In this document: positions 14,781 through 45,286 of the stretch, in pieces
How positions within the stretch are numbered: the stretch's first letter is position 1
How the letters are laid out: every line of letters starts with the position of its first letter
Assembly: GCA_026195275.1 (NCBI GenBank)
Contig: JAPHQU010000002.1
Location: 5,964-69,963 of the forward strand
Direction of reading: 5' to 3'
Source: Minisyncoccota bacterium
GTDB taxonomy: Bacteria > Patescibacteriota > Minisyncoccia > Phycocordibacterales > JABMNX01
DNA length: 64,000 nt
Notes under the pieces: generated by a model
The model's input: the letters and a program-made list of their open reading frames with translations, nothing else
Databases searched by the model: none
Told to the model about the DNA's origin: nothing
Position numbers and translations under genes: made by a program

Positions 14781-14784
14781 AAGG

Positions 14785-15888: not shown

Positions 15889-15891
15889 TAA

Positions 15892-18873: not shown

Positions 18874-18876
18874 ATT

Positions 18877-19623: not shown

Positions 19624-19669
19624 AGTCCGACTTTCTTGATGATACATTTCATATTAAACTTAAGATAAG

Positions 19670-20269
19670 ATGAAGCCACAGATGACACCAAAAGAAATTG
19701 AGATGATGGAAGAAATACTGTCATCGTATGGTCCACACATCGATGTCTTAGAGTGGGGTAGTGGCGGTAGTACAGTGTACTTCACGCGGTTCCTCCATAG
19801 TAAAGATATCTCGTACACATGGACAAGTATTGAATATAACAAGCTCTGGTATGACAAAATATCGGAGGCGGTGAGTAATGACGAAGATGTTGCGCTGAAA
19901 CTTTTTGATGTTGGAAATACTGAATTAAAACAACCTTATACACAAATGGATGAGTATGTCGCGTACCCTAGGACGCTCGGAAAGAAATACGACGTTATTC
20001 TTGTTGACGGAAGGAAGCGACACAGATGCTTGCTTGAAGCAAGTAAGTTATTAAGACCTGGTGGCACCGCGATTCTTCACGATGCGCGAAGGACGTATTA
20101 CCACGGCGCTTTTTCTGCGTACCCAAACAGTCGCATGCTTTTATGGACGGGTCTCTGGCAAGGAAAGCTGGAAGACCCAGGTTTGATTTGTAGAGCTATA
20201 AACTTTATGAGATATTGGTGTTTCCGTGCGTATACATTTTCGTTTCGCTTACGTCCAAGATCCTCATGA
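19670..20269 (+). CDS. class I SAM-dependent methyltransferase (Methyltransf_24-like)
   Basis: VLEWGSGGST, ILVDGRKRHRC; stop overlaps next start (ATGA). Confidence 0.6.
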   Translation: MKPQMTPKEIEMMEEILSSYGPHIDVLEWGSGGSTVYFTRFLHSKDISYTWTSIEYNKLWYDKISEAVSNDEDVALKLFDVGNTELKQPYTQMDEYVAYPRTLGKKYDVILVDGRKRHRCLLEASKLLRPGGTAILHDARRTYYHGAFSAYPNSRMLLWTGLWQGKLEDPGLICRAINFMRYWCFRAYTFSFRLRPRSS

Positions 20270-21519: not shown

Positions 21520-21531
21520 TCTATTAAAACC

Positions 21532-23307: not shown

Positions 23308-24569
23308 GTATTTGTGTTTCTTCTCCACATACCAATACCAATCAATAGTGCTATCAGAGAATTGGATACATTTGCTATCACAAGTCCAAGTACTCCTCCC
23401 CAGATTCCTAGAATCACATAAAGTGTGACGAGTATGACACTTTGAATTATGCTTCTGATGAAAATGAGACGAGATAATTTCTGTGATTCAAAAAGGAGGC
23501 TGACATAGCGGTTGGGCATTGCAAAGATAAAACCTAACGCTAATATCTGCGAGTAGACAACCCCCTCTATATACTGAGGTAGTAGGTATTTGAATAAATA
23601 TGGCGAGATAAGTATATATGTGACCGCTATAAGCGTACCGATGAACATTCCCTGGAAGATTCTTTTGTAGAAAACAGTATTTATTTCTTCAGGTGTCTTT
23701 GTTGCGAACTTGGGGAATCCTAAGCCGACCCAGTTTTTCATGAATGAGGTTGCTCTGTCTGGTACAGCAAGGGCAAGCCAATACACAGCAAGCTGTGCCG
23801 GACCCCAGAAGTGCGTGAGAATGATCTTGTCTATCTGTCCAGTGATTGGTCCAATGAGTCGTATAAAACTTAGCTTGCGACCATACTTGAGTACGTCTCC
23901 AACATCGCCCTCTAGAGACGGCTTGAACTTTCGCAGGATGACAATATAAAAGAAGAGTGTTGTGGCAAACGTCGTAATAGCATAAGCGGCTATGAGCCAC
24001 ACTATTTCTCCGCTTAACAGGATTGCAGCTAGAATACCGCCCACATATACGAGAGTGGATATGATGTTCGATATGCTAGCGAATTGGAACTTTCTTTTCC
24101 CTTCAAGATAAGCGCCGTATGTATTTAAGGCGAGAGTTGAAGGAACAAAGATACCTAAAATAAGAAAGGATATCGCAAGAAGAGTATTGTCATTTATGAA
24201 ATAGTATCCGCTGAAGGTAAAGAACGCAGTAAGCATCAACAAGTTCCACTTGAGTTGGTATTTGACAGAAACCCTGAGCGCTCCGTCGTGCCCCGCGGCA
24301 ACAGCTCTTGCAACTGCGCTGTTCATGCCGGTGAGCGTGAATATATTCAACACGCCTGCTAAGGCAAGGATGTAGCGGTAGAGACCATAAACATCTTTTG
24401 GTAGCAAGTTAGCAAAAGCCACTATGAGCCCCAACGAGAGAATGCTCGTGATGGTTTGTCCAAATGTCACCCAAAAGCCGCCTTTGGCGAGGTAGAGCAT
24501 GTCGGTTTTTGTGTACTTTTCGCTCCAACGGAGGAGGCGATAGAGCTTGTTTCTGGCTTTGGGTATCAT
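23304..24569 (-). CDS. wzx: oligosaccharide flippase (Wzx / polysaccharide biosynthesis protein, MOP superfamily)
   Basis: ~12 predicted TM helices, length 421 aa, typical N-terminal KGGFWVTFGQ... of Wzx family; only large minus-strand gene in cluster. Confidence 0.7.
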   Translation of the reverse strand: MIPKARNKLYRLLRWSEKYTKTDMLYLAKGGFWVTFGQTITSILSLGLIVAFANLLPKDVYGLYRYILALAGVLNIFTLTGMNSAVARAVAAGHDGALRVSVKYQLKWNLLMLTAFFTFSGYYFINDNTLLAISFLILGIFVPSTLALNTYGAYLEGKRKFQFASISNIISTLVYVGGILAAILLSGEIVWLIAAYAITTFATTLFFYIVILRKFKPSLEGDVGDVLKYGRKLSFIRLIGPITGQIDKIILTHFWGPAQLAVYWLALAVPDRATSFMKNWVGLGFPKFATKTPEEINTVFYKRIFQGMFIGTLIAVTYILISPYLFKYLLPQYIEGVVYSQILALGFIFAMPNRYVSLLFESQKLSRLIFIRSIIQSVILVTLYVILGIWGGVLGLVIANVSNSLIALLIGIGMWRRNTNT

Positions 24570-32047: not shown

Positions 32048-33463
32048 ATGGAATACACGCCTACAATTGGTCTAGAGATTCACGCAGAATTAAAGACCAA
32101 GACAAAGATGTTCTGCGACTCCAAGAACGACCCAAACGAACGTGAACCCAACGTGAACATATGCTCTGTGTGTATGGCGCACCCGGGGGCGCTTCCGGTC
32201 ATCAATAGGGAGGCGGTGAAGCATGTACTTCGAGTCGGACTCGCGCTTGGTGGAGAGCTTGCCGACTTCACTGAGTTTGATCGCAAGAATTATTTTTATC
32301 CCGACATCCCCAAAGGTTATCAGATCAGCCAATACAAACACCCGCTTATCTCCGGTGGAAGCCTTAACGGAATTGAATTAACTCGAATTCACCTGGAAGA
32401 AGATACCGCACGCTCTACTCATGACAAAGGCGAGAGAAGTCTAGTTGATTTTAATCGTGCGGGGATTCCACTCATGGAACTCGTAACAGAACCGGTTATT
32501 AGTAACGCAATTGATGCAGGTAACTTTGCGCGTGAACTACAACTACTCCTTCGTTATCTTAAAGCGAGTGATGCAAACATGGAGAAAGGTGAGATGCGTG
32601 TTGAAGCAAATATCTCAGTGAGTAAGACAGGCGAGAAAGGAACCAAGGTAGAGGTGAAGAACCTCAATTCGTTCCGTTCTGTCGAGCGAGCTATTGCATA
32701 CGAGACCAGGCGACAGATTGAAGTGCTTGAGAGTGGCGGGACAGTCGTTCAAGAGACACGTGGATGGGATGAGAATAAACAAGAGACATTCTCTCAGCGT
32801 ATGAAAGAAGAATCGCACGATTATCGCTATATGCCTGACCCTGACCTCCCAAAACTACGCATCTCGGAGATTCGAGATTTTGAGAAGAGTGAACTTACAA
32901 AAGAACTTCCCGAACTCCCATGGGAGAACCGAAGACGCTACGTTGAGGAATATGGAATGAAGCCCGAGGATGCAGAACTCTTTGTTCATGACATGGGCGT
33001 GCTAAAGAGGCTCCTTGAAGAGCACGTGATCCCTGCATTCAAAGATGATAAGAAGAGATTTGGCTTAGCGGTTAACTATATCGCCTCGGATATTGTTGGC
33101 ACGCTATCTCGGATGGGCGAGAGCGCACGCGAACTGGGGGAGAATTTTGTAGAACTCATCACCATGGTAGATGAGGGTCTCTTGTCATCTCGAGGTGCAA
33201 AAGACACCCTCGCAACTCTCCTTGTAGAGGGTGGAAGCGCCAAGGAGGTGGCAGAGGATAAAGGGTTACTACAAGAAAGTAACGAAGGAAAGATCGCCCT
33301 GCTTGTCGATGAAATCATTGAAGAGAACCCAGAAGCAGTAAAAGAGTATAAAGAAGGCAAAGAAGCGTCTCTGAAGTTCCTTGTCGGGCAAGGTATGAAG
33401 AAGAGCAGTGGGTCGGCAAACCCTCAGATTCTTTCAAAACTTTTGATAGAAAAGATGTCCTAG
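32048..33463 (+). CDS. gatB: Asp-tRNA(Asn)/Glu-tRNA(Gln) amidotransferase subunit B
   Basis: MEYTPTIGLEIHAELKTKTKMFC, NICSVCMAHPGALPV, GatB/YqeY C-terminal domain. Confidence 0.9.
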   Translation: MEYTPTIGLEIHAELKTKTKMFCDSKNDPNEREPNVNICSVCMAHPGALPVINREAVKHVLRVGLALGGELADFTEFDRKNYFYPDIPKGYQISQYKHPLISGGSLNGIELTRIHLEEDTARSTHDKGERSLVDFNRAGIPLMELVTEPVISNAIDAGNFARELQLLLRYLKASDANMEKGEMRVEANISVSKTGEKGTKVEVKNLNSFRSVERAIAYETRRQIEVLESGGTVVQETRGWDENKQETFSQRMKEESHDYRYMPDPDLPKLRISEIRDFEKSELTKELPELPWENRRRYVEEYGMKPEDAELFVHDMGVLKRLLEEHVIPAFKDDKKRFGLAVNYIASDIVGTLSRMGESARELGENFVELITMVDEGLLSSRGAKDTLATLLVEGGSAKEVAEDKGLLQESNEGKIALLVDEIIEENPEAVKEYKEGKEASLKFLVGQGMKKSSGSANPQILSKLLIEKMS

Positions 33464-33504
33464 AAAATAAAGCTAGTCTGTCTAAACGACATACCTGTTT
33501 TCCA

Positions 33505-33527
33505 ATCCACATGCGTGGATTTTTTTA
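33505..33527 (+). terminator. rho-independent terminator (atccac-atgc-gtggat + TTTTTTT)
   Basis: hairpin followed by 7 T. Confidence 0.55.
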
Positions 33528-33555
33528 TTGCAAAAGGAGCGTATAATTAAAGTAT

Positions 33556-34605
33556 ATGGACAGTCTTACTATCGGAGGGAAAAACCACATCTCGTCAAAA
33601 CGAGCAGCCGAGCTCATGGGCTACACCCAAGACTACATCGGGCAGCTTGCGCGTGCTGGAAAGATTGACGCAAAGCGCGTCAGTGGTGTGTGGTACATCT
33701 CCGAAGATGAATTCTCTGGCAACGATACTGATCAGAGCAACAATACAGATATTGGCGAGACTAATACTGCTGATCGGGTAGCAGGCGGAAAGACTAATAG
33801 TGGCAACGTAAAAGATGAAAGCGAGACAATCATTCTTGAAGGTGATAAATATATCTCGTCAAAACGAGCAGCCGAGCTCATGGGCTACACCCAAGACTAC
33901 ATCGGGCAACTTTGTCGCGCCGGAAAGATTGAAGCACGACAAGTCGGCAGAAGTTGGTATGTACCAATGACACGTATTGAAGGGGAGCAGGAGATACTGC
34001 AGACGCCAACTAGAGAAGTTAACAACGAAGAAGAAGCTCCTTTCAGGGAACCTACTCTAGAACACACACCTGTTACTAATAAAGGTGCTGATATTTTGAT
34101 TCAATCCGCGTATACCTATACAAATGACGAAAAGCCGCTTATTCCGACACCGCAGCGTGTATCGCGGCCACTTCTCCACGAGATACTTGCTGAAGAGCGT
34201 GATTCCGGGGTCTTGCAGACGGTAGATCGTGATACATATCACACAGAAGACTCTCTTGAACCAACTCCGAGTCGGGTACACGGAGTGATTCCGGCGCAAG
34301 AGACTAAGATCAAGAAGACAGAGAGCAATCCAGTAGCGACTCCTTCTAGACTAAGCACAATACTCCGTGTGGGCACAGTTGCTGCCATGATTGTATTTTC
34401 TTCTCTCTCTTTCTCATATGCCCCATATAAGACGGCATACAGCACACGCGGCGTTGTTGAGGGGGATCAAGTAGAGGTTGCTATTCAAGCAGATGTATTG
34501 CAAGCGGGTGTGGGCAGAGTGGGCGTCAGATCGTCTTTCCTTGAGAAAGGTATAGATTTCCTCTTGAAGACGTTTGGATCAGAGCTAGAATACAAGGCAA
34601 AATAA
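33556..34605 (+). CDS. membrane-tethered protein with two tandem HTH_17 (excisionase/MerR-type) DNA-binding domains and one C-terminal TM helix
   Basis: Two copies of SSKRAAELMGYTQDYIGQL(A/C)RAGKI..(V)..(W)Y motif; hydrophobic LSTILRVGTVAAMIVFSSLSF near C-terminus; a 56-bp segment is repeated 100% identically (33589-33644 and 33853-33908). Confidence 0.6.
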   Translation: MDSLTIGGKNHISSKRAAELMGYTQDYIGQLARAGKIDAKRVSGVWYISEDEFSGNDTDQSNNTDIGETNTADRVAGGKTNSGNVKDESETIILEGDKYISSKRAAELMGYTQDYIGQLCRAGKIEARQVGRSWYVPMTRIEGEQEILQTPTREVNNEEEAPFREPTLEHTPVTNKGADILIQSAYTYTNDEKPLIPTPQRVSRPLLHEILAEERDSGVLQTVDRDTYHTEDSLEPTPSRVHGVIPAQETKIKKTESNPVATPSRLSTILRVGTVAAMIVFSSLSFSYAPYKTAYSTRGVVEGDQVEVAIQADVLQAGVGRVGVRSSFLEKGIDFLLKTFGSELEYKAK

Positions 34606-34624
34606 ACCAATAAGTCGTCATCAT

Positions 34625-34657
34625 ACACCATCTCGGCAATACGAGATGGTGTTTTTG
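34625..34657 (+). terminator. rho-independent terminator (acaccatctcg / cgagatggtgt + tttt)
   Basis: 11-bp perfect stem then T-run. Confidence 0.6.
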
Positions 34658-34911
34658 CTTCTTTAACTCATTTATATATCGAAAGAAGATCTTTTCTGGA
34701 GATCTTCGTATCATATTATATGTCCGGACAGCCGACCTGTCTCTTCATTGCGGTGTATTTTCATTATCAATAACAATCGTCACAGAGATATTCTTCCAAG
34801 GAGTTTGAATGTTTTTTAAAAAGACATCTTAAAGGGCGTTTATCCCCACACTAAAGGACAATGTCTTTTAGAAAGTGTTGTAATATATAGATAATTCGTG
34901 TTAGCGACCAT

Positions 34912-37900
34912 ATGCCAGAAGGTATTTTCTTAAATAACAAAAAATATTTCTCTTCTCGAGATGCGGCGAGTTATGCCGGCTATACCAACGACTACGTCTC
35001 CCGGCTCTGTCGCGAGGGAAAGGTGCCTGGGCAGATGATGGGTCGGGTGTGGCATGTCGAGGCGGAGCCGTTTCTTGAATTCATTCTTGGGCAGGAGCAG
35101 AAGAAGGTCGAGCAGTCACAAGCGCTCTCAGAAGGACGAAAGAAGACATACCAAAAGAGTGTTGAAGAAGATGAGATTGAGAAGCTCACGAGTCTCAGTA
35201 TTCCGCGTGTCGCACTCCCAGTGCCCGCCATCTCCCGAGAGTTGATCGAGAAGTCTGTCGCACTCAGCTTTGCGGTCTTTCTTGTGTTTGGTTCGTACTT
35301 GGCAAAAGATTCTGAATTTGTTCGTGCGACACCTGCGGCGATTGTGTCGTACGCGACAGAGGTGCGCAACAACACACTCGGCATGGTCGAGGGTGTTCGT
35401 GAGGGTGTAGAACTTTCTTCAGTACAAACACGATCCCTTATCTCGAGTGTCGCAAGCGGTGCTTACACAGATGAAATAAAAGAACAGTTCTCTCTTAAAA
35501 ATATCTCTCTTGCGGCTTCCAACTTCGGGGGGCGCATTCTTGATGTAATCGAGCGTGGTATGAAAGGATACCTTTCATTAGTTGTCCTAGCTGGCGAAGG
35601 TGTTGTTTCGGTAAGTGATGCAATCGCTAAACTCCCTGTTGTTGCACGCGAGGCATCAGTCGCAGACATTGTCGCGTACAGCACGCAAAAGGTACAAGAT
35701 GTTGCGGCTAGCACTTCAGGCGGACTGGGCAACGCACGCGAATATTTTTTGGTCTCGATTGCTCGTGGTGTAGATGGGGCGAAGCAGATTTTCCAGAATT
35801 CTCACACAACACTCGCCGCGGTGAATGTTCCTGATTTCTTTGGGAGTCTTTCAAGCAGTATTCGTTTTGGCATCATCGACTGGCTCGACATCCAATCAGA
35901 AGGAGTGGTCACTACTCCTTCCTTTGTAGAGGAGCCACAGGCAGTTATTGAACATCCAGTGATTGAGCGGGTCGTGGAGACGAGGGAGACGATCGTGCGT
36001 AGCGGTATCACCGAAGAGTATGTGCTTGCCAAACTCGAGGAACTTAACAATAAACTATCTTCAAAGATATACGATCTCACTGCTAGCAATGCATCAAGTA
36101 TCGCTAGTAACTTCAATACAATCGCAAAGACGAATATCATTAACAAACTCAAGTCAGTAACGATCACAAGCTCAACGATCACTGATTCGACGATCAATGG
36201 CAATTCAACATTCTCCGGAACGACTGGTTCATTCAGCGGAGCGGTCGATGTCGGGTCGCTCACAGTGGGTGGTGAGGTAATCACTGGCGGGCTTACTGTC
36301 GGTACCGACGGGATTGTCTTTGTGAGTAGTTCCGGCAATGTAGGTATTGGTACCACCTCACCATACGCAAAACTCTCTGTGGTAGGAGAGGTGGTTGCCG
36401 CTAACTTCACCGCCACCTCAACGAGCGCGACCTCAACTTTCAATGGCGCACTTCTCGCAACACGCGCACCAACGCTTCCACATACATTTTCAGTTTGGTC
36501 ACCTGGCGCCAGTGGCTCCAATTATGCTGACGCTTCTCTCGTGATTAATCCAGCTTCATCCGTTGCCGATGGAAACCTGATCACCGCCTCTGTAGGTGGG
36601 TCGGTTAAATTCATTGTTGACGCCGAGGGAGGTGTGTTTACTAACTCACTTACCTCAGTTGGTGGCGTGACGCTCTCGACCACTACTGCGGCAACGTTCA
36701 CAGTTGAAGGCAACACTACGTTGGGTGACTCTGTCTCTGATGTAACCACAATCAACGGTACACTCACTGTAACTGGACAGACGTCTGTCTCAACAGTTGA
36801 TGGTAACTTCGGCGTGGGCACCACGTCTCCATGGGCACGTCTCTCGGTTGCGGGGGTGTCGAATGGTACCGACCCACTCTTTACAATCTCCACCTCAACC
36901 GCATCAGCAACCTCAACTGCGGTGTTAGTTGATGCAAACGGCAACTTTGGTATCGGTACTACATCACCATCTGCAACTTTTGCGGTTGAAGGTGACGCGT
37001 ATATTAACGGGGTGATCACCACCGACCTCACTACTTCAGGGATCGTCGACTTCAGTGGTACGGGTACCACAACCTTTGGAGGTGACATAGAAGTACAGGG
37101 TCTTTCTGCAATCAATTACCTTGAGACACCATTCATCTATGCGACCTCTACCACTGCCACGTCGACATTCGCCGGCGGTCTTGCAATAGAGACCACCGGA
37201 CTGGTGTATGACTATTCGACGAATAGAGTGGGAATTGGGACGGCATCACCAAGTCAGTCGCTTGATGTGTACGGAAAGATAGCACAAAACGGATTGCAGA
37301 TGTTGTACAACGCTAACGCAGGCGGCTACACAGGGTCGCTATTCTTTGGTAGTGGTGGAGGAAGCCTTTCCCATACATCAGGAAGTGAAGGATATTATAA
37401 TACAGCGGTTGGATATGATACCCTGCTTTCAAATACAACCGGAAGTTATAACTCAGCACTTGGATACAAAGCGCTCTACTCAAATACCACGGGAGACAGC
37501 AACACTGCTGTAGGGAAGGACGCGCTTCGGTATAATACGACCGGGTTTCAGAATACCGCCATAGGACTCGACGCGCTTCAAGCTAATACCGAGGGGTATA
37601 ACAACTCCGCCCTAGGATTCGATGCTCTTTACTCAAATACCACAGGATACACCAACATTGCTGTAGGGATGAGCGCGCTCTACCGCAATACCGAGGGGTT
37701 CGATAACGTCGCAGTGGGATACGAGGCACTCCATGATAACACCATCGGAGATGGAAGTGTTGCTTTAGGTCTCGGTGCCCTCTACAACAACACTACCGGG
37801 GGTTGGAATGTCGCTTTGGGGCCTCACGCCGGCAGGTACGTCACTGGTAGTGTCGCGAATGAGTCTTCTGAGTACTCAGTGTACATTGGTGCGAACACAA

Positions 37901-38544
37901 AAGGGTTTGCAGACGGTGATTCAAACGAGATTGTTATCGGCTACAACGCCACCGGTATAGGATCCAATACGGTAACTCTCGGAAACGACTCTATTGTTAC
38001 CACAGCACTTAAGGGAAATGTCGGCATCGGTACCACAACCCCGTGGGGCAAGCTCTCCATTGAGATGGATACAACCGATCCGTCCTTTGTCGTCTCCAAC
38101 CAGGGCTCATCAACCCCTGCACTCTATGTCTCGGGTGTAAACCAGGACGGCGTCGTGGGTATTGGTACGACCGGTGGCACCGGTCGCAGACTCGATGTCT
38201 TTGACGCGGGCAATCCGCAGTTGCGTCTCTCGCAGACGAGCAGTATCTACACGAACTTCCAAGTTGCAGCAAGCACTGGAGACCTCACGATCGACCTCAA
38301 CCCGAACACAAGCGCGACAAACATTTACCTTACACAAACAGGCGGTTCGACCGGTGCAAACCTGCGTGTGTGTGAAGGTTCGGCCTGCCCGAGTGTGACG
38401 ATCTCAAGCGGTGGTAATGTGCTCGCCGAGAACGGTTTCTACTTCGGCAACGGCTACAAGCTCGACCAGGTCGCTGGCACCACGACCGAGATTGCGGTGT
38501 ATGACACCAGTGCGACTGCGATCATCATCTTCGATGAGTTCTAA
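34912..38544 (+). CDS. giant (1210 aa) surface protein: N-terminal HTH_17-like domain, single TM helix, then tail-fibre-like extracellular region with NVGIGTTSP motifs and seven or eight 17-aa xxNxAxGxxALxxNTxG repeats
   Basis: N-term FSSRDAASYAGYTNDYVSRLCREGKVPGQMMGRVWHV paralogous to upstream gene; TM SVALSFAVFLVFGSYLAK; repeats read directly in translation; stop 5 nt before tatC start. Confidence 0.6.
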   Translation: MPEGIFLNNKKYFSSRDAASYAGYTNDYVSRLCREGKVPGQMMGRVWHVEAEPFLEFILGQEQKKVEQSQALSEGRKKTYQKSVEEDEIEKLTSLSIPRVALPVPAISRELIEKSVALSFAVFLVFGSYLAKDSEFVRATPAAIVSYATEVRNNTLGMVEGVREGVELSSVQTRSLISSVASGAYTDEIKEQFSLKNISLAASNFGGRILDVIERGMKGYLSLVVLAGEGVVSVSDAIAKLPVVAREASVADIVAYSTQKVQDVAASTSGGLGNAREYFLVSIARGVDGAKQIFQNSHTTLAAVNVPDFFGSLSSSIRFGIIDWLDIQSEGVVTTPSFVEEPQAVIEHPVIERVVETRETIVRSGITEEYVLAKLEELNNKLSSKIYDLTASNASSIASNFNTIAKTNIINKLKSVTITSSTITDSTINGNSTFSGTTGSFSGAVDVGSLTVGGEVITGGLTVGTDGIVFVSSSGNVGIGTTSPYAKLSVVGEVVAANFTATSTSATSTFNGALLATRAPTLPHTFSVWSPGASGSNYADASLVINPASSVADGNLITASVGGSVKFIVDAEGGVFTNSLTSVGGVTLSTTTAATFTVEGNTTLGDSVSDVTTINGTLTVTGQTSVSTVDGNFGVGTTSPWARLSVAGVSNGTDPLFTISTSTASATSTAVLVDANGNFGIGTTSPSATFAVEGDAYINGVITTDLTTSGIVDFSGTGTTTFGGDIEVQGLSAINYLETPFIYATSTTATSTFAGGLAIETTGLVYDYSTNRVGIGTASPSQSLDVYGKIAQNGLQMLYNANAGGYTGSLFFGSGGGSLSHTSGSEGYYNTAVGYDTLLSNTTGSYNSALGYKALYSNTTGDSNTAVGKDALRYNTTGFQNTAIGLDALQANTEGYNNSALGFDALYSNTTGYTNIAVGMSALYRNTEGFDNVAVGYEALHDNTIGDGSVALGLGALYNNTTGGWNVALGPHAGRYVTGSVANESSEYSVYIGANTKGFADGDSNEIVIGYNATGIGSNTVTLGNDSIVTTALKGNVGIGTTTPWGKLSIEMDTTDPSFVVSNQGSSTPALYVSGVNQDGVVGIGTTGGTGRRLDVFDAGNPQLRLSQTSSIYTNFQVAASTGDLTIDLNPNTSATNIYLTQTGGSTGANLRVCEGSACPSVTISSGGNVLAENGFYFGNGYKLDQVAGTTTEIAVYDTSATAIIIFDEF

Positions 38545-38549
38545 TATAT

Positions 38550-39347
38550 ATGAGCAACTTTCTTTCAACATATTTTGATGAAGCAAGATTATTTTTCCGC
38601 AATTTCACGGAGTGGTTTTTGCTTTTACTTATTTTCACGATTTTCTTCTTTCTGTTTGGTCTCAAAGAGGTCGTGTTCTTTGAGCGCGTCTTCATGCTTC
38701 CACTTCCAACAAACCCATCGTTTGCTGCAGATTTCTTTAATCAGATGGTCGTGGATCTTGTGCCGCATGAGGTGTTGCTCGTGGTGACGGGTCCACTCGC
38801 GGCATTCATTGCACAGATCAAGATCGCGCTTCTCCTGGCGTTTGTCTTTACGCTTCCGGTCTTCTTGTATCGCTTTGTGCACTACCTCTCACCCGCGCTT
38901 CGTGGGCGCGAGAAGCGAACAATCTTTGCTGTTGCGTTCCTGTCGGCGCTCCTCTTTGCTCTCGGCGGACTCTTCTCGTACCTCGTCTTAATTCCACCAA
39001 CGTTTGACATTCTTTACGTATACACCGGTGCAATTGATGCGGCTCCGTTCTTCACTGTAAATGAGTTTGTCGGGCTTGTACTCTCATTTGTACTCGCGAC
39101 CGGTATTCTCTTCCTACTGCCGGTTGTGCAAGTGCTTCTCACGCGTCTCGGAATCGTTTCTCCACAATTTTGGCGTCAGCAATGGCGCTATGCATTGGTA
39201 GTTTTCCTTGTGGTCTCTGCTATAATTACACCAGATGGCAGTGGGGTGACGATGGTGTTTCTCTCACTCCCTATGACAGGTCTCTACCTCATCGGTAGCG
39301 CTGTGGCGCAACCGATGAGGAGTGGAAAGTGGAAAGTGGAAAGTTGA
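38550..39347 (+). CDS. tatC: twin-arginine translocase subunit TatC
   Basis: six TM helices, conserved TatC pattern incl. LPLPTNPSF... and ITPDGSGVTM. Confidence 0.85.
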   Translation: MSNFLSTYFDEARLFFRNFTEWFLLLLIFTIFFFLFGLKEVVFFERVFMLPLPTNPSFAADFFNQMVVDLVPHEVLLVVTGPLAAFIAQIKIALLLAFVFTLPVFLYRFVHYLSPALRGREKRTIFAVAFLSALLFALGGLFSYLVLIPPTFDILYVYTGAIDAAPFFTVNEFVGLVLSFVLATGILFLLPVVQVLLTRLGIVSPQFWRQQWRYALVVFLVVSAIITPDGSGVTMVFLSLPMTGLYLIGSAVAQPMRSGKWKVES

Positions 39348-39375
39348 AAGTATGAAAATAACTTTTAACCTTACA

Positions 39376-39414
39376 AACCTAATACCTAATTACTAAAACC
39401 TAACACCTAATAAT
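39376..39414. repeat. short tandem ACCTAAT-like repeats (5 copies) in tatC-tatA spacer
   Basis: aaccttacaaacctaatacctaattactaaaacctaacacctaataat read directly. Confidence 0.5.
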
Positions 39415-39687
39415 ATGTTTGGACTCGGAATATCAGAAATAATAATTATCTTGCTTGCCGTGGGGATTCTTCTCTTTGGAAGCAATAAGATCGTTGATCT
39501 TGCGCGCTCAATGGGCCGCTTCACTGGAGAATTCAAAAAAGGAAAGCGCGACATTGAGAACGAGATCACCAAAGCAGAGCAGGAGAACATGGGAGGTGCG
39601 CCAGTATCAGAGAATGATCAGGCGTTGACTCAAGAAGATTCATCAACTGAAGAGGTGGGTGATACCCAAGATAAGAGTCGCTCATAA
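39415..39687 (+). CDS. tatA: twin-arginine translocase subunit TatA/E
   Basis: N-terminal TM then FG hinge and amphipathic helix (MFGLGISEIIIILLAVGILLFGSNKIVDLARSMG). Confidence 0.85.
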   Translation: MFGLGISEIIIILLAVGILLFGSNKIVDLARSMGRFTGEFKKGKRDIENEITKAEQENMGGAPVSENDQALTQEDSSTEEVGDTQDKSRS

Positions 39688-39690
39688 TCC

Positions 39691-39981
39691 TTGACGCGTA
39701 ACTTGCAAACATCCATGCCTATGTCTGAGAAAGAGGAAAATACATTTGAGAAATTCAACAAGAACCGCCGACAATTCCTTGTCGTTGGCGGTGCGAGTGT
39801 AGCTTCGTTTTTCTTGGGAAAGATCTTTGGTCCGAGCATCAATCTCTTCTCGCAAGATATCCCGATTAGCGAGAGAGATTTTAAGGATTTTCGCATCGTG
39901 GAGACCAACAAGGAGATGAAGCTCTACGATCGTAAGGGCAACGAGCTCTTCATCGTTGACAAGGAAAGCTTCCGCGAATAA
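39691..39981 (+). CDS. small protein with twin-arginine signal/anchor (NRRQFLVVGGASVASFFLG)
   Basis: Tat motif read in translation; TTG start at 39691 or ATG at 39715; stop lies inside a perfect 13-bp hairpin (39972-40000). Confidence 0.45.
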   Translation: MTRNLQTSMPMSEKEENTFEKFNKNRRQFLVVGGASVASFFLGKIFGPSINLFSQDIPISERDFKDFRIVETNKEMKLYDRKGNELFIVDKESFRE

Positions 39982-40011
39982 AGGCAAAGCCTTTATTCGC
40001 GAAAACTTTCC

Positions 40012-40037
40012 AGTTGAAAGTTATAAAGTTCATAAAG
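40012..40037. repeat. left inverted repeat flanking Avd/IVS-like gene (agttgaaagttataaagttcataaag)
   Basis: matches reverse complement of 40400-40424 at 22/25 positions. Confidence 0.7.
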
Positions 40038-40054
40038 TTAGAAAGTGTGCGACG

Positions 40055-40399
40055 ATGAAGATAGAAAAATTTGAAGATATCCTCGCGTGGCAGAAAGCTC
40101 AAAAACTGACTCTTTTTGTCTACAAAACATTTCGTAACAATAAGGATTTTGGCTTTAAAAATCAGATAGAGAGAGCGGCGGTCTCAGTGATGAATAATAT
40201 AGCCGAAGGATTTGAGCGCCAGACAAACAAGGAGCTGACAAACTTCCTGTTTATCGCAAAAGGTTCTTGTGGAGAGGTTAGGTCTATGCTCTATGTTGCT
40301 CTTGAGTTAAAATGTATTACAAAAGCAGACTTTGACGAAATGTATAAAATGTCGGTGGAGATATCAAAGATGCTTTCGGGATTGATCAAGACTTTATAA
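40055..40399 (+). CDS. four-helix-bundle protein of the 23S rRNA intervening-sequence protein / Avd-like family
   Basis: kvWQKAqkL...KNQIERAAVSVMNNIAEGFERQT..FLFIAKGSCGEV..L pattern matches the IVS-protein family consensus; track ORF start 39956 is an upstream extension. Confidence 0.7.
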   Translation: MKIEKFEDILAWQKAQKLTLFVYKTFRNNKDFGFKNQIERAAVSVMNNIAEGFERQTNKELTNFLFIAKGSCGEVRSMLYVALELKCITKADFDEMYKMSVEISKMLSGLIKTL

Positions 40400-40424
40400 C
40401 TTTACAAACTTTTAACTTTCAACT
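40400..40424. repeat. right inverted repeat flanking Avd/IVS-like gene (ctttacaaacttttaactttcaact)
   Basis: reverse complement matches 40012-40037. Confidence 0.7.
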
Positions 40425-40433
40425 CGTTTCTCT

Positions 40434-40829
40434 ATGACAATGCGCATCTCAGCAACCCGAATAGACATGGACGACAAGACGCTCCAGAAGCCGGTCCTCA
40501 AGGACTATGGCGAGACAGTGAACGCGCTTGGCTCCGGAGGCGGCACGCGAGATGTCGACCTCACACTCGGCAACGTGGTGACCTGCACAGTCTCTACAAG
40601 CACCAACACATTCACATTCTCGAATCCGTCTGCATCAGGCACCGCCTGCAGCTTCACGCTCATCCTCACCAACGGCGGTTCACAGACCGTCAATTGGCCC
40701 GCGTCTGTTGGCTGGGCAGGCGGTACCGGACCGACCTTGACCAGCTCAGGTGTCGACGTCATCACCTTTGTCACAATCGACGCCGGCACGACATGGTATG
40801 GTTTTGCTGCCGGTCTGGCTATGGCGTAG
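40434..40829 (+). CDS. hypothetical protein (Thr/Ser/Gly-rich, 131 aa)
   Basis: ORF with RBS-less ATG after the inverted repeat; no recognised family; shares short TxSTxNxF motif with next gene. Confidence 0.4.
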   Translation: MTMRISATRIDMDDKTLQKPVLKDYGETVNALGSGGGTRDVDLTLGNVVTCTVSTSTNTFTFSNPSASGTACSFTLILTNGGSQTVNWPASVGWAGGTGPTLTSSGVDVITFVTIDAGTTWYGFAAGLAMA

Positions 40830-40880
40830 TCTATTGTGCTGTGCTCTGTAGGATTTTTGTCTTAGATTCTTATTTCTCTT

Positions 40881-41735
40881 ATGCCCTTCGGAACTTCATT
40901 CAGAACACTTCTTGCGAGCGCGAGTAACGGAAGTGGCGGCGGTTTTAATCTGACAGTTTCTTCCACGACTAACAAGTTCAACCTGTACAATGCGCTTATC
41001 GCAGACGGGTGGAACGGGACTGATGTCGTCGAAGCCACGGTCACCGTGGACACCGGGGTAGTTGTCTATTCGGATACCACGGCGACCGCAGCATTTGATG
41101 CGACAGGGCTTCCGGCTGGGTCCACCTTATCGCTGATCAACCTTGGCTATCTGTACGGTAAGGGGGGAAACGGCGGCGCTGGCGGCTGGAGAGGTGGAGA
41201 TAATTATCCGACCAATGGTGCCGCAGGTTCGGCAGGCGGAACCTCCTTCAAGACAGACAGTAATTGCACTGTCGAAATAACCAACGCCAATGGCTACATT
41301 TATGGTGGAGGCGGAGGCGGTGGCGGAGGCGGTGGCGGGTACTTAATCGGAGGTCACGATTGCGGCATAACCGGTGGTGGCGGCGGAGGCGGTGGTGCAG
41401 GGTATTCTGGCGGTGGCGGCGGAAGCGGCGGAAATATGTCAGGCTCCGGCTGTACTATCGGAAAATGTAGTGGCACTGCCGGATCAACAGGATCATCCTC
41501 TTCCGGAGGTGGTCCGGGTAGTGGCTGTACGGTTAACATCTGCGTTAGCGGCAACGGCGGCGGGGGTGGCGGTCTAGGTGCTGGCGGAAGTTCTGGTAGC
41601 AATGCGTCGTCCTGTAATTCTATGAACAAATCTGGTGGAGGTGGCGGCGCAGCCGGTAAATCCGTCGAAGGCAACACCTACGTCACTTTCTTGTCTGGTG
41701 ACGATTCGACACACGTAAAAGGACCAAAAGTATAA
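40881..41735 (+). CDS. glycine-rich, Cys-containing hypothetical protein (long poly-Gly tracts)
   Basis: GGGGGGGGGGGG tracts, seven Cys in C-terminal half; alternate-frame ORFs across the G-rich DNA are artefacts. Confidence 0.45.
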   Translation: MPFGTSFRTLLASASNGSGGGFNLTVSSTTNKFNLYNALIADGWNGTDVVEATVTVDTGVVVYSDTTATAAFDATGLPAGSTLSLINLGYLYGKGGNGGAGGWRGGDNYPTNGAAGSAGGTSFKTDSNCTVEITNANGYIYGGGGGGGGGGGGYLIGGHDCGITGGGGGGGGAGYSGGGGGSGGNMSGSGCTIGKCSGTAGSTGSSSSGGGPGSGCTVNICVSGNGGGGGGLGAGGSSGSNASSCNSMNKSGGGGGAAGKSVEGNTYVTFLSGDDSTHVKGPKV

Positions 41736-41737
41736 TT

Positions 41738-42613
41738 ATGACAAAAAAGTACGACTTCAAAATTATGAGACTGGATCGTGATAACAAAACCATCGAAATT
41801 GAGTGGGATAACAAGCTCGTTCTTTCATATGACATACCATTTGATGATAATGGGATACCACTAAAGGACCAGTATTTTTTGGATTGGGTTGCCCGCAATG
41901 TCCCTGAGGATGATTTGAGAAAGAAAGAGAGAGTGAATCTGCTCACAGATGCTGATGTCAATATTTTGAATGGACTCAGCGGTACCGTTGAACCTCTCTC
42001 AGGTAAGAATTCTTGTGGGCTTCCTGGAGAATGTAGTGTCGAAAGTGCGATGAAGGAGCTTGTGTGGATTGCGAGTTTCCCAAAGTCCGGTAATACGTGG
42101 TTTCGGGTCATGTTATACGAGACTCTTTTTGGAAAGTTGGTAAACAAAGATTTAGATGATTTATTACCTAACAGTCTGGGGGATCTTCGCGTACATCGAA
42201 ATACACAGTTCATAAGGACCCACGACCTGCCACTTATGCACAAGTGTCCAGCAAAGGCGATATACCTAAAACGCGATTGGTCGGGAGTGATGCAATCCGC
42301 CGACAACCATCAAGAGTTTGCAGGATACAACGTCCTCAAGACCGTGGGTGCCTCTCATGGCGAGCATATTGCCGCATGGGAGAGCCGGAGCGATTGTCCG
42401 GTTCATGTGATTCGCTACGAAGAGATGTGCAAAGACCCGGTTGGTATATTTGTCAAAGCCGCAGAGTTTCTCGGCTTGGATGCTGTTGTGGCTGCGCAAG
42501 TGGCAGCACGAGTGAACAAGGCTTACATGCGGAAGCTCGAGGACGCAGGGCTTCTTGGCATGCACGTTAATTCAGCCCCGGGATTCGGGGGAAAGACCCG
42601 GTTCATTAGATAA
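41738..42613 (+). CDS. sulfotransferase-family protein (PAPS-dependent) with ~100-aa N-terminal extension
   Basis: 5'-PSB motif SFPKSGNTW; start 3 nt after upstream stop. Confidence 0.6.
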   Translation: MTKKYDFKIMRLDRDNKTIEIEWDNKLVLSYDIPFDDNGIPLKDQYFLDWVARNVPEDDLRKKERVNLLTDADVNILNGLSGTVEPLSGKNSCGLPGECSVESAMKELVWIASFPKSGNTWFRVMLYETLFGKLVNKDLDDLLPNSLGDLRVHRNTQFIRTHDLPLMHKCPAKAIYLKRDWSGVMQSADNHQEFAGYNVLKTVGASHGEHIAAWESRSDCPVHVIRYEEMCKDPVGIFVKAAEFLGLDAVVAAQVAARVNKAYMRKLEDAGLLGMHVNSAPGFGGKTRFIR

Positions 42614-42787
42614 ACACTGTTACGTATCGCATTCGGGGGAACACCCGCCTAAGGCTAAAGGTGTAATATAAAATGATTACGGACACCGTGACATATACCC
42701 TAATTTGTTGAGAGCTGTGTGTTTTTGTGTACAAATGGGCTGTTTGGAGGGTAGAAATACTGATACAATGATTAGAATCGGAACCAT

Positions 42788-44206
42788 ATGTTTCAAAGAC
42801 TCGTACACTTCATTAAGTATCATAACGCGCTCCCTATAGCGATATCTATTGTTGTTGCGGGATCCGGTGCTGCATTTGCCGCTACGAATGATGCGGTGCG
42901 CGATCAGGTTGTCTCAAAGGAGGTGGTCATGCAATCGGTTGATAATAGCTACGTTCTCTCAGTTGATCTTGCGGCGTTTAACCCAGGACTCCAGGTGACG
43001 GCTGTTGAAGAAGACGAAGAGTTTTATTATGTCACCTATGCATACCGTACGATTGCGATTGATGATTATGCATGGAAGGACAGATATATTGAAGAGACAC
43101 TTGCGGTCTCCAAAGAGGTGCTTGGCGAGCGCGACCTCGGTAGCTACGTAGCTGAAGAACTCGGACAGACTGTTGAGGCGAGGATGGCATATCTTAAAGA
43201 TGTGCAGTCTATTGAGAAGAGAAACGGGGTGACCAAGAAGGTTGCGACTGTGACGTACTCAGGGCTTGTCGGCAAATTCCTTGAGCCAAAACAAGAATTC
43301 TTTGAGGGATATACCCCAGTCAAAGAGGAACCAAAACCGTACGTTGCATCGGTTGAAGAGTCGAAAGCAAGTGCGGCGATTGCGGCCGCAAACGCGGTTT
43401 CAAACCAGATTGCGGCGGCTATCCCAAGCAAAGAGGAGGTCGAGCGTATTATCGAACGAAAAGTTGCCGAGCTTCTTAAAGAAGGCAAACTCACAGCGTC
43501 AGCTGCCGGGGCTGACACCACAAATGAGACAGGCGCAACAAGTCCGACAGACACTTCTGGCGGTGTCTCAGGAGATACGGAAGCACCAGTTATCACTGTT
43601 CTTGGTAACAACCCCGCGGAGATTGAAGTTGGCGCAAGTTACGTGGATCTTGGCGCGACTGTAGAGGACAACGTTGACAATAACCTCGGTATTCATTACG
43701 CAGTTGATGGTGCTGAGGTTGGTGCTATAGCGATCGACACTTCAACGGACCGCACGTATACCATAACCTACAGCGCGACAGACCAAGCGGGTAACACCGG
43801 TACCGCGGAGCGTGTGGTGATCGTTGGTACCGGAGAGTACACGGAGCCAGAAAGTGAAGAACCTGTTGAGGAAGAAACACCCGTTGAGGAGCCTGCTCAA
43901 CCTGAAGACATCACCGCGCCAATCATTACTCTCATCGGAGATTCGGAGATTACACTCACAGAAGGCGACACATACACTGAAGCGGGCGCGACAGCAACAG
44001 ATGAGATCGATGGCGACATTACAGACAGTATTGTGATTGAAGGTACTGTTGACACAGCGACTCCCGGAGAATACACACTCAGCTATAATGTCTCCGATGC
44101 TGCAGGTAATGGGGCGGTGGAGGTTGTGAGGGTGGTGATCATTGAGGCTGCACCCGAGCAAACCCCAGAAGACAATGAGACCGCGACGAGTACCCCAAGT
44201 GAATAG
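42788..44206 (+). CDS. secreted/anchored protein with two bacterial Ig-like DUF5011-type domains and acidic linkers
   Basis: N-terminal signal-anchor, APVITVLGNNPAEIEVGASYVDLGATVEDN and APIITLIGDSEITLTEGDTYTEAGATATDEIDGD repeats. Confidence 0.5.
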   Translation: MFQRLVHFIKYHNALPIAISIVVAGSGAAFAATNDAVRDQVVSKEVVMQSVDNSYVLSVDLAAFNPGLQVTAVEEDEEFYYVTYAYRTIAIDDYAWKDRYIEETLAVSKEVLGERDLGSYVAEELGQTVEARMAYLKDVQSIEKRNGVTKKVATVTYSGLVGKFLEPKQEFFEGYTPVKEEPKPYVASVEESKASAAIAAANAVSNQIAAAIPSKEEVERIIERKVAELLKEGKLTASAAGADTTNETGATSPTDTSGGVSGDTEAPVITVLGNNPAEIEVGASYVDLGATVEDNVDNNLGIHYAVDGAEVGAIAIDTSTDRTYTITYSATDQAGNTGTAERVVIVGTGEYTEPESEEPVEEETPVEEPAQPEDITAPIITLIGDSEITLTEGDTYTEAGATATDEIDGDITDSIVIEGTVDTATPGEYTLSYNVSDAAGNGAVEVVRVVIIEAAPEQTPEDNETATSTPSE

Positions 44207-44257
44207 TATGGGCGCACTTGGTGGTCGTCTGCAACTTTTTAATACCCCTAATATAGA

Positions 44258-45286
44258 ATGAGAAAGAAACGAGTAGCAATCAACGGGTTTGGACGTATCG
44301 GACGGGCGTTCTTTAAGCTTGCTGAGGCGGACGAATCGTTTGAGGTGGCAGCCATCAACGATCTTGGTGATCTTGAGAACCTCGCGTACCTTCTTAAATA
44401 TGATTCCGCGTATGGGATCAGTGATTTGAATATTGACACCAAGGACGGCGCGCTTGTGGTGGATGGTCGCAAGATTACTTTCATGAGCGAACGTGATCCA
44501 CTCAACCTCCCGTGGGGCAAGATGGAGATCGACCTGGTCCTTGAGTCAACCGGGGTGTTTACGAGCTATGAGAAGTCGCGTGTACACCTAGAGACCGGCG
44601 CAAAACGTGTAGTCATCTCAGCTCCGGTAAAAGACGAGCCGCCAGCGGGTGTTGCTGGTGCCACTGTGCTTATTGGTGTCAACGAAGAGAAGCTCAGGGT
44701 GTGTGACATAAGCTCAAACGCATCGTGCACCACGAACGCATCGAGCCCGGTGATACAGATTCTTGATGAGGTTGTGGGCATTGAGAAAGCACTCCTTAAT
44801 ACGGTTCACGGGTACACTGCCTCACAGAGCCTTGTTGACGGACCAAACAAGAAAGATTTCCGCAAAGGTCGCGCAGCAGCAGAGAATATTATTCCCTCAA
44901 CCACTGGCGCGGCGATCGCGGTCACAAAAGCCATACCGTCGCTTGAAGGGAAGTTTGACGGTATCGCGATGCGTGTACCGATTATTACCGGCTCTCTTGT
45001 CGACATCACTTTTGTCGCAAAACGGGAGGTGACGACTGAGGAGATTAACGGTGCACTCGCGCGTGCGGCGGGAGATGACCAGTGGAAACGCGTATTTTCC
45101 GTTACGAAAGAGCCGATTGTCTCAAGTGATATTGTCGGGAGCCCGTTTGCATCAATTGCCGACCTTTCTTTCACGCGAGTGGTTGGCGGCAACCTCGTGA
45201 AGGTGCTCGCGTGGTATGACAACGAGGCGGGGTATACGCACGCACTCCTTGAGCATGTTAAGCGTTCACTTAGACATATATCATAA
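44258..45286 (+). CDS. gap: type I glyceraldehyde-3-phosphate dehydrogenase
   Basis: VAINGFGRIGR NAD-binding, ASCTTN active site. Confidence 0.9.
   Translation: MRKKRVAINGFGRIGRAFFKLAEADESFEVAAINDLGDLENLAYLLKYDSAYGISDLNIDTKDGALVVDGRKITFMSERDPLNLPWGKMEIDLVLESTGVFTSYEKSRVHLETGAKRVVISAPVKDEPPAGVAGATVLIGVNEEKLRVCDISSNASCTTNASSPVIQILDEVVGIEKALLNTVHGYTASQSLVDGPNKKDFRKGRAAAENIIPSTTGAAIAVTKAIPSLEGKFDGIAMRVPIITGSLVDITFVAKREVTTEEINGALARAAGDDQWKRVFSVTKEPIVSSDIVGSPFASIADLSFTRVVGGNLVKVLAWYDNEAGYTHALLEHVKRSLRHIS

Follow-up and report, generated by a model that had tools for sequence, protein, structure and literature searches.

The DNA analyzed here is a stretch of 64,000 nt (the window) from contig JAPHQU010000002.1 of a Minisyncoccota bacterium belonging to the Parcubacteria, which are tiny and probably symbiotic bacteria. 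The region described here is flanked by housekeeping genes, with secA, obg, and gatB before it and gap, rpe, and tkt after it. Between them lie two adjacent genes, called A and B, that encode membrane proteins with N-terminal helix-turn-helix (HTH) domains, and the protein encoded by B continues into a giant fiber. B is followed by the twin-arginine translocation (Tat) genes tatC and tatA, by a gene for a very small protein with a Tat-type signal (the mini-protein), and by genes for phage-type tip proteins. All of the features located below are on the + strand. Inspection of the open reading frames (ORFs) and their translations placed every ORF where a preliminary description of this DNA had put it. 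That description had left out that the Tat genes belong to a wider cassette, which includes the C-terminal domain of the fiber and the downstream phage-type tip genes. Related loci, labeled L001 etc., were fetched from genomes and metagenomes. The gene order around A and B was compared in ten loci from different assemblies (L001–L004, L028–L032, and the window).

Gene A (33556–34605) encodes a membrane protein of 349 residues with tandem winged HTH (wHTH) domains and a single transmembrane (TM) helix, the layout reported in the preliminary description. Pfam HTH_17 (PF12728) matched A in two stretches (E=1.9e-9, 38.1 bits against a cut-off of 27) and TIGR01764 'excise' matched with E=1.7e-8 (34.6 bits, cut-off 28.8). 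The first domain (aa 3–54; 33562–33717) was delimited with an HTH profile and with the AlphaFold2 (AF2) model, in which it has a beta-beta-alpha-alpha-beta-beta arrangement, and the second (aa 91–149; 33826–34002) was found by Pfam, by the profile, and by AF2. Disordered linkers containing the conserved short motifs Y..D..L.P and IPIR lead to the TM helix (aa 265–287; 34348–34416), which is a hydropathy peak, a helix in the AF2 model, and part of a family-wide positive-inside bias described below. The protein ends in a short tail with a conserved helix (aa 327–340, AF2). A is 100% identical to an NCBI protein from a 'Candidatus Pacebacteria' metagenome-assembled genome and has 1654 homologues. 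The 120 matches listed are mostly of 300–430 aa, a few being shorter or partial, and their named sources are Kaiserbacteria, Paceibacterota, Parcubacteria, or similar.

The AF2 model of A, built from an alignment of 28 A-family sequences, gave both wHTH domains a predicted local distance difference test score (pLDDT) above 90. When the model was compared with the Protein Data Bank (PDB) using Foldseek, the first match was TraN of pIP501 (E=1.2e-3, probability 1.0), followed by a mycobacteriophage Xis, a BldC-DNA complex, RdfS, and a RacA-DNA complex. A single A domain superposes on Xis (4j2n) with a root-mean-square deviation (rmsd) of 1.7 Å and on BldC (6ama) with 1.5 Å. The comparison with Xis- and MerR-type structures proposed earlier thus gave Xis, BldC, and TraN as structural relatives. 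PDB sequence searches with B and with the A, p131 (a tip protein described below), and mini-protein families gave nothing meaningful.

The segments encoding the two HTH domains of A form a direct DNA repeat of 97 nt (33576–33672 and 33840–33936) that is 87% identical, whereas the two protein domains are 52% identical overall. The difference suggests recent gene conversion between the repeats. Gene A ends in a strong intrinsic terminator (34625–34652), an 11-bp stem followed by a T-run, which lies in the 306-nt spacer between A and B. The stem sequence ATCTCG..N6..CGAGAT is kept in L002, L003, L028, and L029 despite A identities of about 35%. Since a terminator and 306 nt separate the two genes, A is a separate transcription unit. 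A and B are therefore not one unit, contrary to the operon-like array of the preliminary description; the link between B and the Tat genes is real and conserved. An Rfam search of 33400–40500 returned a sub-threshold chance match only, and no known RNA element was found in the A-B spacer.

Gene B (34912–38544; 1210 aa) encodes a wHTH domain, a TM helix, and a giant modular fiber, with orthologues at 10 of 10 loci. The HTH (aa 1–60; 34912–35091) is 34% identical to the first HTH of A in a direct alignment, and 15 positions are invariant between it and both A domains. It also matches an A homologue from another genome (BLASTP E=3e-9). Note that the HTH profile used for the family statistics below and for scanning the window was built from the window's own three domains. 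The match of B to this profile is circular, because the profile includes B's own domain. Independent evidence for an HTH in B comes from the direct alignment with A, from the BLASTP match to a foreign A homologue, and from an HMMER search with aa 1–160. The two HTHs of A and the HTH of B are paralogous, excisionase-type winged helices, as the earlier reading of B as a carrier of a third paralogous domain, one TM helix, and a huge ectodomain had it. The profile scan found no other member of the HTH family among the window ORFs.

Beyond the TM helix of B (aa 107–129; 35230–35298; hydropathy score 1.53; kept in the orthologues) lies an ectodomain of about 1080 aa. Its conserved neck (aa 345–430; 35944–36201; PVIERVVETRE...LEELNNKLSSKIY), a block common to B, B1, B2, and B28, is probably a coiled coil. 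The shaft (aa 431–800; 36202–37311) has GNVGIGTTSP-type motifs at aa 476, 632, 678, and 772, and six motifs of the form (N/R/V)(V/F)G(I/V)GT were found in the whole of B, in agreement with the preliminary description. The 17-aa repeats of the form NxAxGxxALxxNTxG (aa 827–982; 37390–37857) were also present as described; their number is nine, the last being degenerate, rather than the seven or eight given before. The C-terminal tip domain (aa 1031–1210; 38002–38544) ends in IIIFDEF and travels with the Tat cassette. From the HTH through the TM helix, neck, and shaft to about aa 790, B is 44–56% identical to its orthologues (the shaft alone 44–52%), and the distal parts differ between genomes. 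The repeat block, which is missing in B1 and B28, is an inserted module of the phage tail-fiber/tailspike type.

B aa 747–1041 matched phrog_6002 (1.5e-33), phrog_23837 (2.9e-30), and phrog_4636 (6e-21) in the PHROGs, and tblastn showed the repeat module to be 39–50% identical to tail-fiber or tailspike proteins of isolated Pelagibacter, Roseobacter, Flavobacterium, and cyanobacterial phages. The phage origin proposed for the ectodomain is borne out by these matches, and by its sequence the ectodomain is a modular fiber assembled from phage tail-fiber modules. A Hep_Hag/YadA identity was considered for the 17-aa repeats and rejected; B gave no Pfam match at E<=0.1 and the phage fiber PHROGs matched instead. 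B is likely to form an adhesive fiber.

The order (secA...)gatB-A-B was found in 10 of the 10 Parcubacteria loci, and in every one of them A carries two HTHs and B a single one. The HTH-TM-fiber architecture is present in the B orthologues of all the related loci, and uninterrupted ORFs of this kind occur in independent assemblies, which removes the concern that B might be a frameshift or assembly artefact. The synteny survey advised earlier thus shows gatB-A-B to be a core, vertically conserved surface-fiber locus of Parcubacteria. The B orthologues have lengths of 925, 1087, 1316, 1440, >4309, and 8310 aa. The giants are called at L004:11439-20936 (8310 aa) and L030:7448-12933 (>4309 aa) and have the same N-terminal HTH. 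In L032 another HTH paralogue, the third, is encoded between gatB and A (ORF 3402–5939).

The HTH-TM segment is not peculiar to the A-B pair. An exhaustive HMMER search with B aa 1–160 matched 4025 cluster representatives (412 with E<1e-10), and the matches listed are proteins of 106–7214 aa. Two HTHs were present in 199 of the 256 family sequences retrieved and one in the remaining 57. A hydrophobic helix follows the last HTH in 228 of the 256 (exactly one helix in 220), and 25 extend more than 500 aa beyond the TM helix; ectodomains in the family range from <100 aa to several thousand. HTH-TM is therefore a widespread N-terminal module of many surface proteins. The recognition helix is near-invariant over 455 domains (D 98%, Y 96%, L 96%, R 98%, and W 99%).

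Topology was judged from hydropathy, from the charge bias of Lys plus Arg, and from the AF2 helix. In the 256 sequences the 15 residues flanking the TM helix contain on average 3.3 Lys plus Arg before the helix and 1.3 after it, and by the positive-inside rule the HTHs are therefore cytoplasmic, as the preliminary description had supposed. A and B are almost certainly type II (N-in) membrane proteins with the winged HTH domains inside the cell. An anti-sigma-like tether had also been considered for this arrangement; neither a sigma nor an anti-sigma element was found.

Directly in front of B lies a promoter- or operator-like region (34812–34911). Over about 110 nt 5' of B the mean column identity is 76% in six genomes whose A proteins are 32–39% identical; the orthologous blocks are L001:11096-11203, L002:11236-11341, L003:11440-11525, L028:1912-2015, and L029:9325-9435. 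The block contains three or four AAAGGAC-type half-sites spaced about 21 nt apart, among them AAAAGACA (34819) and TAAAGGGC in the window, and two of the half-sites form the palindrome AAAGGACA-A-TGTCTTTT (= AAAGGACAATGTCTTTT; 34853–34869). The palindrome consensus is AAARGACA(N0-1)TGTCYTTT. The 64-kb window contains it once, as do L001, L002, L003, and L028 (loci of 7–21 kb); the L029 palindrome is imperfect and was seen by eye only. A box, TTATCCCCAC (34840–34849), with the consensus TTATCC(C)CAC has a core that is invariant in 9 of 9 loci. A promoter-like TTTAGA-17-GATAAT (34867–34895) follows, and the palindrome overlaps its putative -35 element. TCGTGTTAGCGACCAT stands directly 5' of the B ATG in the window, and TCGTGTTAGCGA is conserved at this position across the aligned genomes. 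By the placement of the promoter-like elements, most of the conserved block is upstream of the likely transcription start. In more distant clades the palindrome is lost, and the box core and a promoter-like TAGTAAA..TAGTAAATTCGT are kept in 9 of 9 aligned loci. Such an order, in which a regulator-like gene and its terminator are followed by a conserved operator and then by the target, is a classical one.

The stop codon of B is 5 nt from tatC (38550–39347), which encodes six hydrophobic helices and matches Pfam TatC above the cut-off (E=1.1e-41). tatA (39415–39687; Pfam TatA_B_E, E=3.5e-11, above cut-off) comes next and then the mini-protein gene (39715–39981), a succession that had been described correctly. 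The mini-protein has 88 aa from the ATG at 39715, which is a more likely start than the TTG at 39691. Its signal, judged by inspection, consists of NRRQFLV (RR at nt 39766–39771), an h-region of 15 uncharged residues, and then K; LGKIFGPSINLF and a conserved domain of about 45 aa follow. Six mini-protein sequences share RR, the L at +3, and LGK..GP.I without exception, and the LGKIFGPSIN segment is unusually conserved. The mini-protein is the only ORF with a Tat-like (RR) signal in the 64-kb window. A 23-nt inverted repeat (39963–40011; 91% complementary, 3-nt loop) overlaps the mini-protein stop codon (39979–39981), starting 19 nt before that stop and ending 44 nt before the next gene (40055–40399), which encodes a 23S-rRNA-IVP four-helix bundle (Pfam 23S_rRNA_IVP, E=5.6e-34). 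The inverted repeat could be a terminator lacking a T-run or an insertion site of the IVP gene. The position of the IVP gene varies; it is upstream of tatC in L008 and L010, elsewhere in L023, and absent in L003. A diversity-generating retroelement was considered for this gene and rejected, as the DivGenRetAVD match (E=0.049) was far below the cut-off and 33400–44300 holds no long direct repeat of the template/variable type. No reverse transcriptase was seen among the ORFs scanned.

A search of genomes and metagenomes with the mini-protein gave a set of 17 distinct loci including the window and L028, the latter of which entered through the A-homologue look-up. These loci were annotated by BLAST and translation, and 16 of them could be evaluated for gene order. 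In 15 of the 16, tatC lies directly before the mini-protein gene, and in all 15 tatA stands between them (in L009 by translation only). A protein starting M..(R/K)IS..R.DM follows the mini-protein gene in 15 of 16 loci, p131 being the window copy, and the fiber gene upstream of tatC always ends ..(I/V)xFD(E/Q)xx. The order fiber end, tatC, tatA, mini-protein, p131 holds across mini-protein identities of 38–71%. The Tat cassette is very likely a functional unit. The preliminary description had called a Tat pair atypical for the candidate phyla radiation (CPR), but an earlier paper (PMC9166423) had reported TatA and TatC from Paceibacteria, Microgenomatia, and Saccharimonadia; the Tat passages of that paper name neither substrates nor genomic context.

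When the window was compared with L003, L012, and L028, the last 180 aa of B were found to be 72–83% identical to the fiber ends of those loci, TatC 57–63%, the mini-protein 63–71%, and p131 58–82%. These values are far above the 32–39% of A, which gives the impression that the cassette, together with the 3' end of B, has been exchanged laterally as a unit. At the close orthologous loci L001 and L002 the cassette is absent, and about 195 extra covalent residues follow a related domain instead. The HTH-TM and Tat modules are separable and are combined in the window, L003, and L028. The genome of L003 carries a second mini-protein gene (L007:9974-11134 = L016, L017) paired with a 288-aa protein that starts MTVRISKRRVDM. 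This pair lies inside a type IV pilus cluster, between pilin and prepilin-peptidase genes and with no tat genes nearby, which hints at a link between mini/tip pairs and pili.

Beyond the IVP gene, p131 (40434–40829; N-terminus MTMRISATRIDM) encodes a signal-less phage tail-fiber terminal domain. It matched PHROG tail-fiber families down to 1e-15, and tblastn also matched isolated phages. Many of its 1077 homologues are 70–86% identical to it. Homologues on three longer contigs could be placed in context. Two are the C-termini of proteins in phage structural gene clusters, one between tail and lysis genes and one with a podovirus-type adaptor gene, and the third lies close to genes for phage coat protein and lysozyme in what is likely a prophage. 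For p131, AF2 gave a beta-sandwich (pLDDT 80) with 28 unstructured residues in front of it. In the viral structure database BFVD the model matched 194 viral proteins at E<=1e-3 (TM-score up to 0.77), annotated fiber proteins among them, and Foldseek against the PDB gave weak phage matches only (E>=5e-3). The NCBI gene call P0257 (120 aa) starts at Met12 and omits MTMRISATRID; the longer ORF is probably correct because these residues are conserved across loci. The p131-like proteins of L006–L009 have no hydrophobic N-terminal segment, and in the other loci, for which the N-terminal sequences alone were read, the p131-type proteins show no signal-peptide-like stretch there.

The next ORF (40881–41735; 284 aa) is a Gly-rich, Gp38-like adhesin with poly-Gly runs and no signal peptide. 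It matched Pfam GP38 (PF05268; E=1.8e-7, 31.7 bits against a cut-off of 25) and PHROG 2056 'tail fiber protein; host specificity'. From their sequences, the downstream genes appear to be domesticated phage fiber tips lacking export signals. RCC1-like proteins of about 368 aa replace the Gp38-like gene at L006:11028-12131, L008:10781-11887, and L009:9472-10578. These have WGxNxxGQLG repeats, no hydrophobic N-terminal segment, and transferase genes downstream of them, and their N-termini resemble those of the Gp38-like protein (MPFGTSFRTLL in the window, MPVGIAFRGMM in L006). In the window the Gp38-like gene is followed by a sulfotransferase gene (41738–42613; Pfam Sulfotransfer_1, E=1e-8) that is possibly a member of the island, and transferase genes follow the cassette in L008, L009, and L024 also. 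A surface protein with a Sec signal and two Bact_surface_Ig-like domains (42788–44206; Pfam 4.6e-34) closes the window island, to which it may belong because a protein with a very similar N-terminus follows the L023 cassette (L023:2740-3945).

The best reading of these data, which we hold with a confidence somewhat short of even, is that A and B form a membrane-tethered, DNA-binding adhesin system with ToxR-like autoregulation, the folded phage-derived tips of which are exported by Tat through hitchhiking on the mini-protein. Since all of their structural neighbors bind DNA, the HTHs of A and B would do so too, which is rather more probable than not on these structural grounds. Their most likely target would be the conserved operator-like region directly in front of B. 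Fiber synthesis would then be controlled from the membrane by the logic of ToxR and CadC, with A as a dedicated membrane-embedded regulator or sensor and B's own HTH providing feedback. Such regulation at the B promoter is a tentative proposal. For the Tat part, TatAC would export the mini-protein, and p131 folded in the cytoplasm, perhaps together with the Gp38-like adhesin, would hitchhike on it. Once outside, the tips could dock on the C-terminal domain of the fiber and so provide an exchangeable phage-style receptor-binding tip for attachment to other cells. A ternary contact is suggested by the co-conservation of the fiber end, the mini-protein domain, and the tip N-terminus. Hitchhiker export is possible, and we put it forward with some reserve. 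The fullest version of this reading is a cell-surface 'tail-fiber organelle', in which the fiber is fastened to the chromosome, possibly at its own promoter, through the DNA-binding domain that it carries, and a dedicated TatAC exports folded tips by a 'signal-peptide-only' escort onto the C-terminal domain of the fiber. In that complete form it is unlikely.

Several observations weigh against this reading of the locus. Regarding DNA binding, the N-terminus of B falls below the Pfam and TIGRFAM thresholds (TIGR01764, E=0.025), the HTH domains are weakly basic (mean net charge +1.7), and the presence of the module at the head of thousands of different surface proteins is more what one would expect of a general device for anchoring or sorting than of a set of specific regulators. 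Regarding the operator, conservation of the recognition helix extends through the whole family but that of the palindrome through one clade only. The box is similar to a DnaA box and L001 carries a perfect TTATCCACA, and hence DnaA or another factor may bind there. Neither TTATCCCCAC nor a DnaA-box-like motif is enriched elsewhere in the window, the cumulative GC skew of which is monotonic, and the lack of enrichment means that there is no evidence for a regulon or a replication origin. Regarding export, the mini-protein has no evident signal-peptidase site and may stay anchored in the membrane. Some p131-type proteins, of 485–843 aa (L008 and L009), would be large for Tat if they are trimers, and L023 has no p131 gene. 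Finally, the cassette fibers of L006 and L024 start with a Sec signal peptide instead of HTH-TM, and since fibers with the same tip use a Sec signal peptide, the HTH is not needed for the Tat part.

The first of the alternatives takes up the anchoring argument. The HTH would be an anchoring or positioning module for large surface proteins (a 'stopper' or nucleoid tether) rather than a regulator, retaining them in the membrane when they are pulled or setting them at a defined site. Any DNA contacts would be non-specific, or made at chromosomal sites that have no part in transcription, as for RacA and Noc, and A would be a scaffold. That the same module heads about 4000 clusters with ectodomains of such different sizes fits this explanation, a near-invariant recognition helix fits one common ligand better than many operators, and RacA, a chromosome anchor, is among the structural neighbors. 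However, A has almost no ectodomain and thus nothing to anchor, the weakly basic charge of the HTHs counts against a nucleoid tether as well, and both the regulator-next-to-target layout and the conserved operator-like region are left unexplained. We consider anchoring rather unlikely as the role of the HTHs.

A second alternative concerns only the Tat genes, which would neighbor the fiber by virtue of a shared mobile island and not of a shared pathway. The mini-protein would then be a small Tat substrate or accessory subunit, or the tips would act in the cytoplasm or leave the cell in another manner. Several observations speak for it: the cassette is lacking at L001 and L002, lateral transfer is suggested by identities far above those of the core genes around it, IVP and Gp49-type genes have inserted within the cassette or next to it, and the second mini/p131-type pair in the pilus cluster of L007 has no tat genes. 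Set against these points, the gene order is kept in 15 of the 16 evaluable loci over the full range of mini-protein identities, the mini-protein is the sole RR-signal ORF of the window, and the tips are homologous to extracellular phage fiber knobs yet have no signal of any kind. A shared mobile island without a shared pathway is an unlikely account of the cassette.

The HTHs might instead be protein-protein interaction domains of the RodZ or SepH type that link the fiber and A to a cytoskeletal or secretion component, in which case their ligand would not be DNA. The HTH of RodZ binds MreB and that of SepH binds FtsZ. The succession of HTH, linker, TM helix, and extracytoplasmic part is as in RodZ, a protein similar in length to A, and the strictly conserved surface residues together with the linker motifs of A suggest protein partners, as does the low net charge of the HTHs. 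This explanation is nevertheless improbable, given that all close structural neighbors bind DNA, that no RodZ family appeared in the Pfam results for A or B, and that no cytoskeletal gene is linked to A-B in any of the 10 loci.

That the locus is a prophage remnant, or B a chimera made by misassembly or frameshift from separate genes, is extremely improbable despite three genes with clear phage tail-fiber homology and the absence of the B repeat block from some orthologues, because independent assemblies contain the same uninterrupted HTH-TM-fiber ORFs, housekeeping genes flank the locus, the only tRNA in the window is 20 kb away, and no capsid, portal, terminase, or integrase gene was found among the window genes scanned with Pfam and PHROG (the island, its downstream flank, and the 10.9–23.3 kb stretch). 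The prophage hypothesis was rejected on the housekeeping flanks and on the lack of head, packaging, and integration genes in that set. The B fiber and the tips are phage-derived yet encoded in a cellular core locus. Elsewhere in the window, a segment of low GC content at about 10000–24000 (0.39–0.45 compared with about 0.49 elsewhere) holds a polysaccharide-synthesis cluster with GT1, GT4, and GT9 glycosyltransferases, a pyruvyl transferase, a deacetylase, methyltransferases, and an asparagine-synthase-like gene, and may be a horizontally acquired glycan island.

Host recognition and attachment by CPR bacteria (Patescibacteria) are largely unknown beyond type IV pili, and the A-B locus is a core conserved candidate for these functions that its fixed gatB-A-B position makes easy to find. 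If the HTHs bind DNA, surface proteins of about 4000 clusters would be wired directly to the chromosome, and cells having few regulators would possess a very short signaling or feedback path. If the Tat cassette works as proposed, it would explain the retention of Tat in metabolically minimal CPR bacteria and would show a domestication route for phage receptor-binding proteins that must fold before export. Were the organelle reading true, it would add a new class of membrane-tethered DNA-binding adhesins and a new use of Tat, escort in trans for domesticated phage proteins. Searches of the full-text searchable literature found no description of an HTH_17-TM-fiber protein or of a cassette of fiber end, tatC, tatA, mini-protein, and tip.

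Among known systems, A and B resemble ToxR, TcpP, and CadC in that a domain of a DNA-binding type at the cytoplasmic N-terminus is joined by a single TM helix to an extracytoplasmic C-terminus, and in that the putative regulator gene adjoins its putative target. ToxR, TcpP, and CadC act on DNA while inserted in the membrane and have small periplasmic sensors of about 100–250 aa. Unlike these proteins, the DNA-binding domains of which are of the OmpR/PhoB type, A and B have an excisionase/MerR-type domain, duplicated in A, and in B this domain is fused to a structural fiber of 1000 to >8000 aa. No family of the OmpR type (Trans_reg_C) appeared in the Pfam or NCBIfam results for A and B. A and B thus stand outside the ToxR family, because their domain is excisionase/MerR-type and not OmpR-type.

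TraN of the Enterococcus plasmid pIP501 (PDB 4pm3 and 4p0z), the best structural match to A, likewise has two tandem excisionase-like HTHs. In contrast to A, it is a small soluble conjugation protein lacking a linker, a TM helix, and an ectodomain; the two proteins are only 14–17% identical and the relative orientation of the domains is not reproduced (rmsd 9–11 Å). Excisionases, BldC, and RacA have the same single-domain fold as A (rmsd 1.5–2.3 Å over 46–54 residues). TraN binds double-stranded DNA, and excisionases, BldC, and RacA typically bind arrays of direct repeats cooperatively, a mode that resembles the repeated AAAGGAC half-sites upstream of B. However, the latter are all soluble proteins with no membrane tether or attached surface structure. 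RodZ is built in the same order as A and B, from a cytoplasmic HTH through one TM helix to an extracytoplasmic domain, and has a length near that of A, but its HTH is Xre-type and neither A nor B has a sequence or family match to it.

The distal part of the system has its closest counterparts in phage fibers such as T4 gp37/gp38 and CBA120 TSP4, in which the gene for a shaft with a conserved end likewise precedes genes for small, separate tip or adhesin proteins able to dock there. Rather than being attached to a baseplate, fibers of the B type are anchored in the membrane by HTH-TM or secreted by Sec, and where a phage protein would have its attachment domain the tips have 11 N-terminal residues specific to the cassette. 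In Tat hitchhiker export, of which E. coli HybO/HybC and DmsA/DmsB are examples, a folded protein lacking a signal crosses the membrane bound to a partner that carries the RR signal. The known carriers are full-size redox subunits, whereas the candidate carrier here has 88 aa, a signal plus a domain of about 45 aa, and the candidate passengers are phage-type fiber proteins. The parts of the A-B locus, membrane-tethered DNA-binding proteins, Tat substrates, and domesticated phage fibers, are each known; their combination is unusual and widespread.

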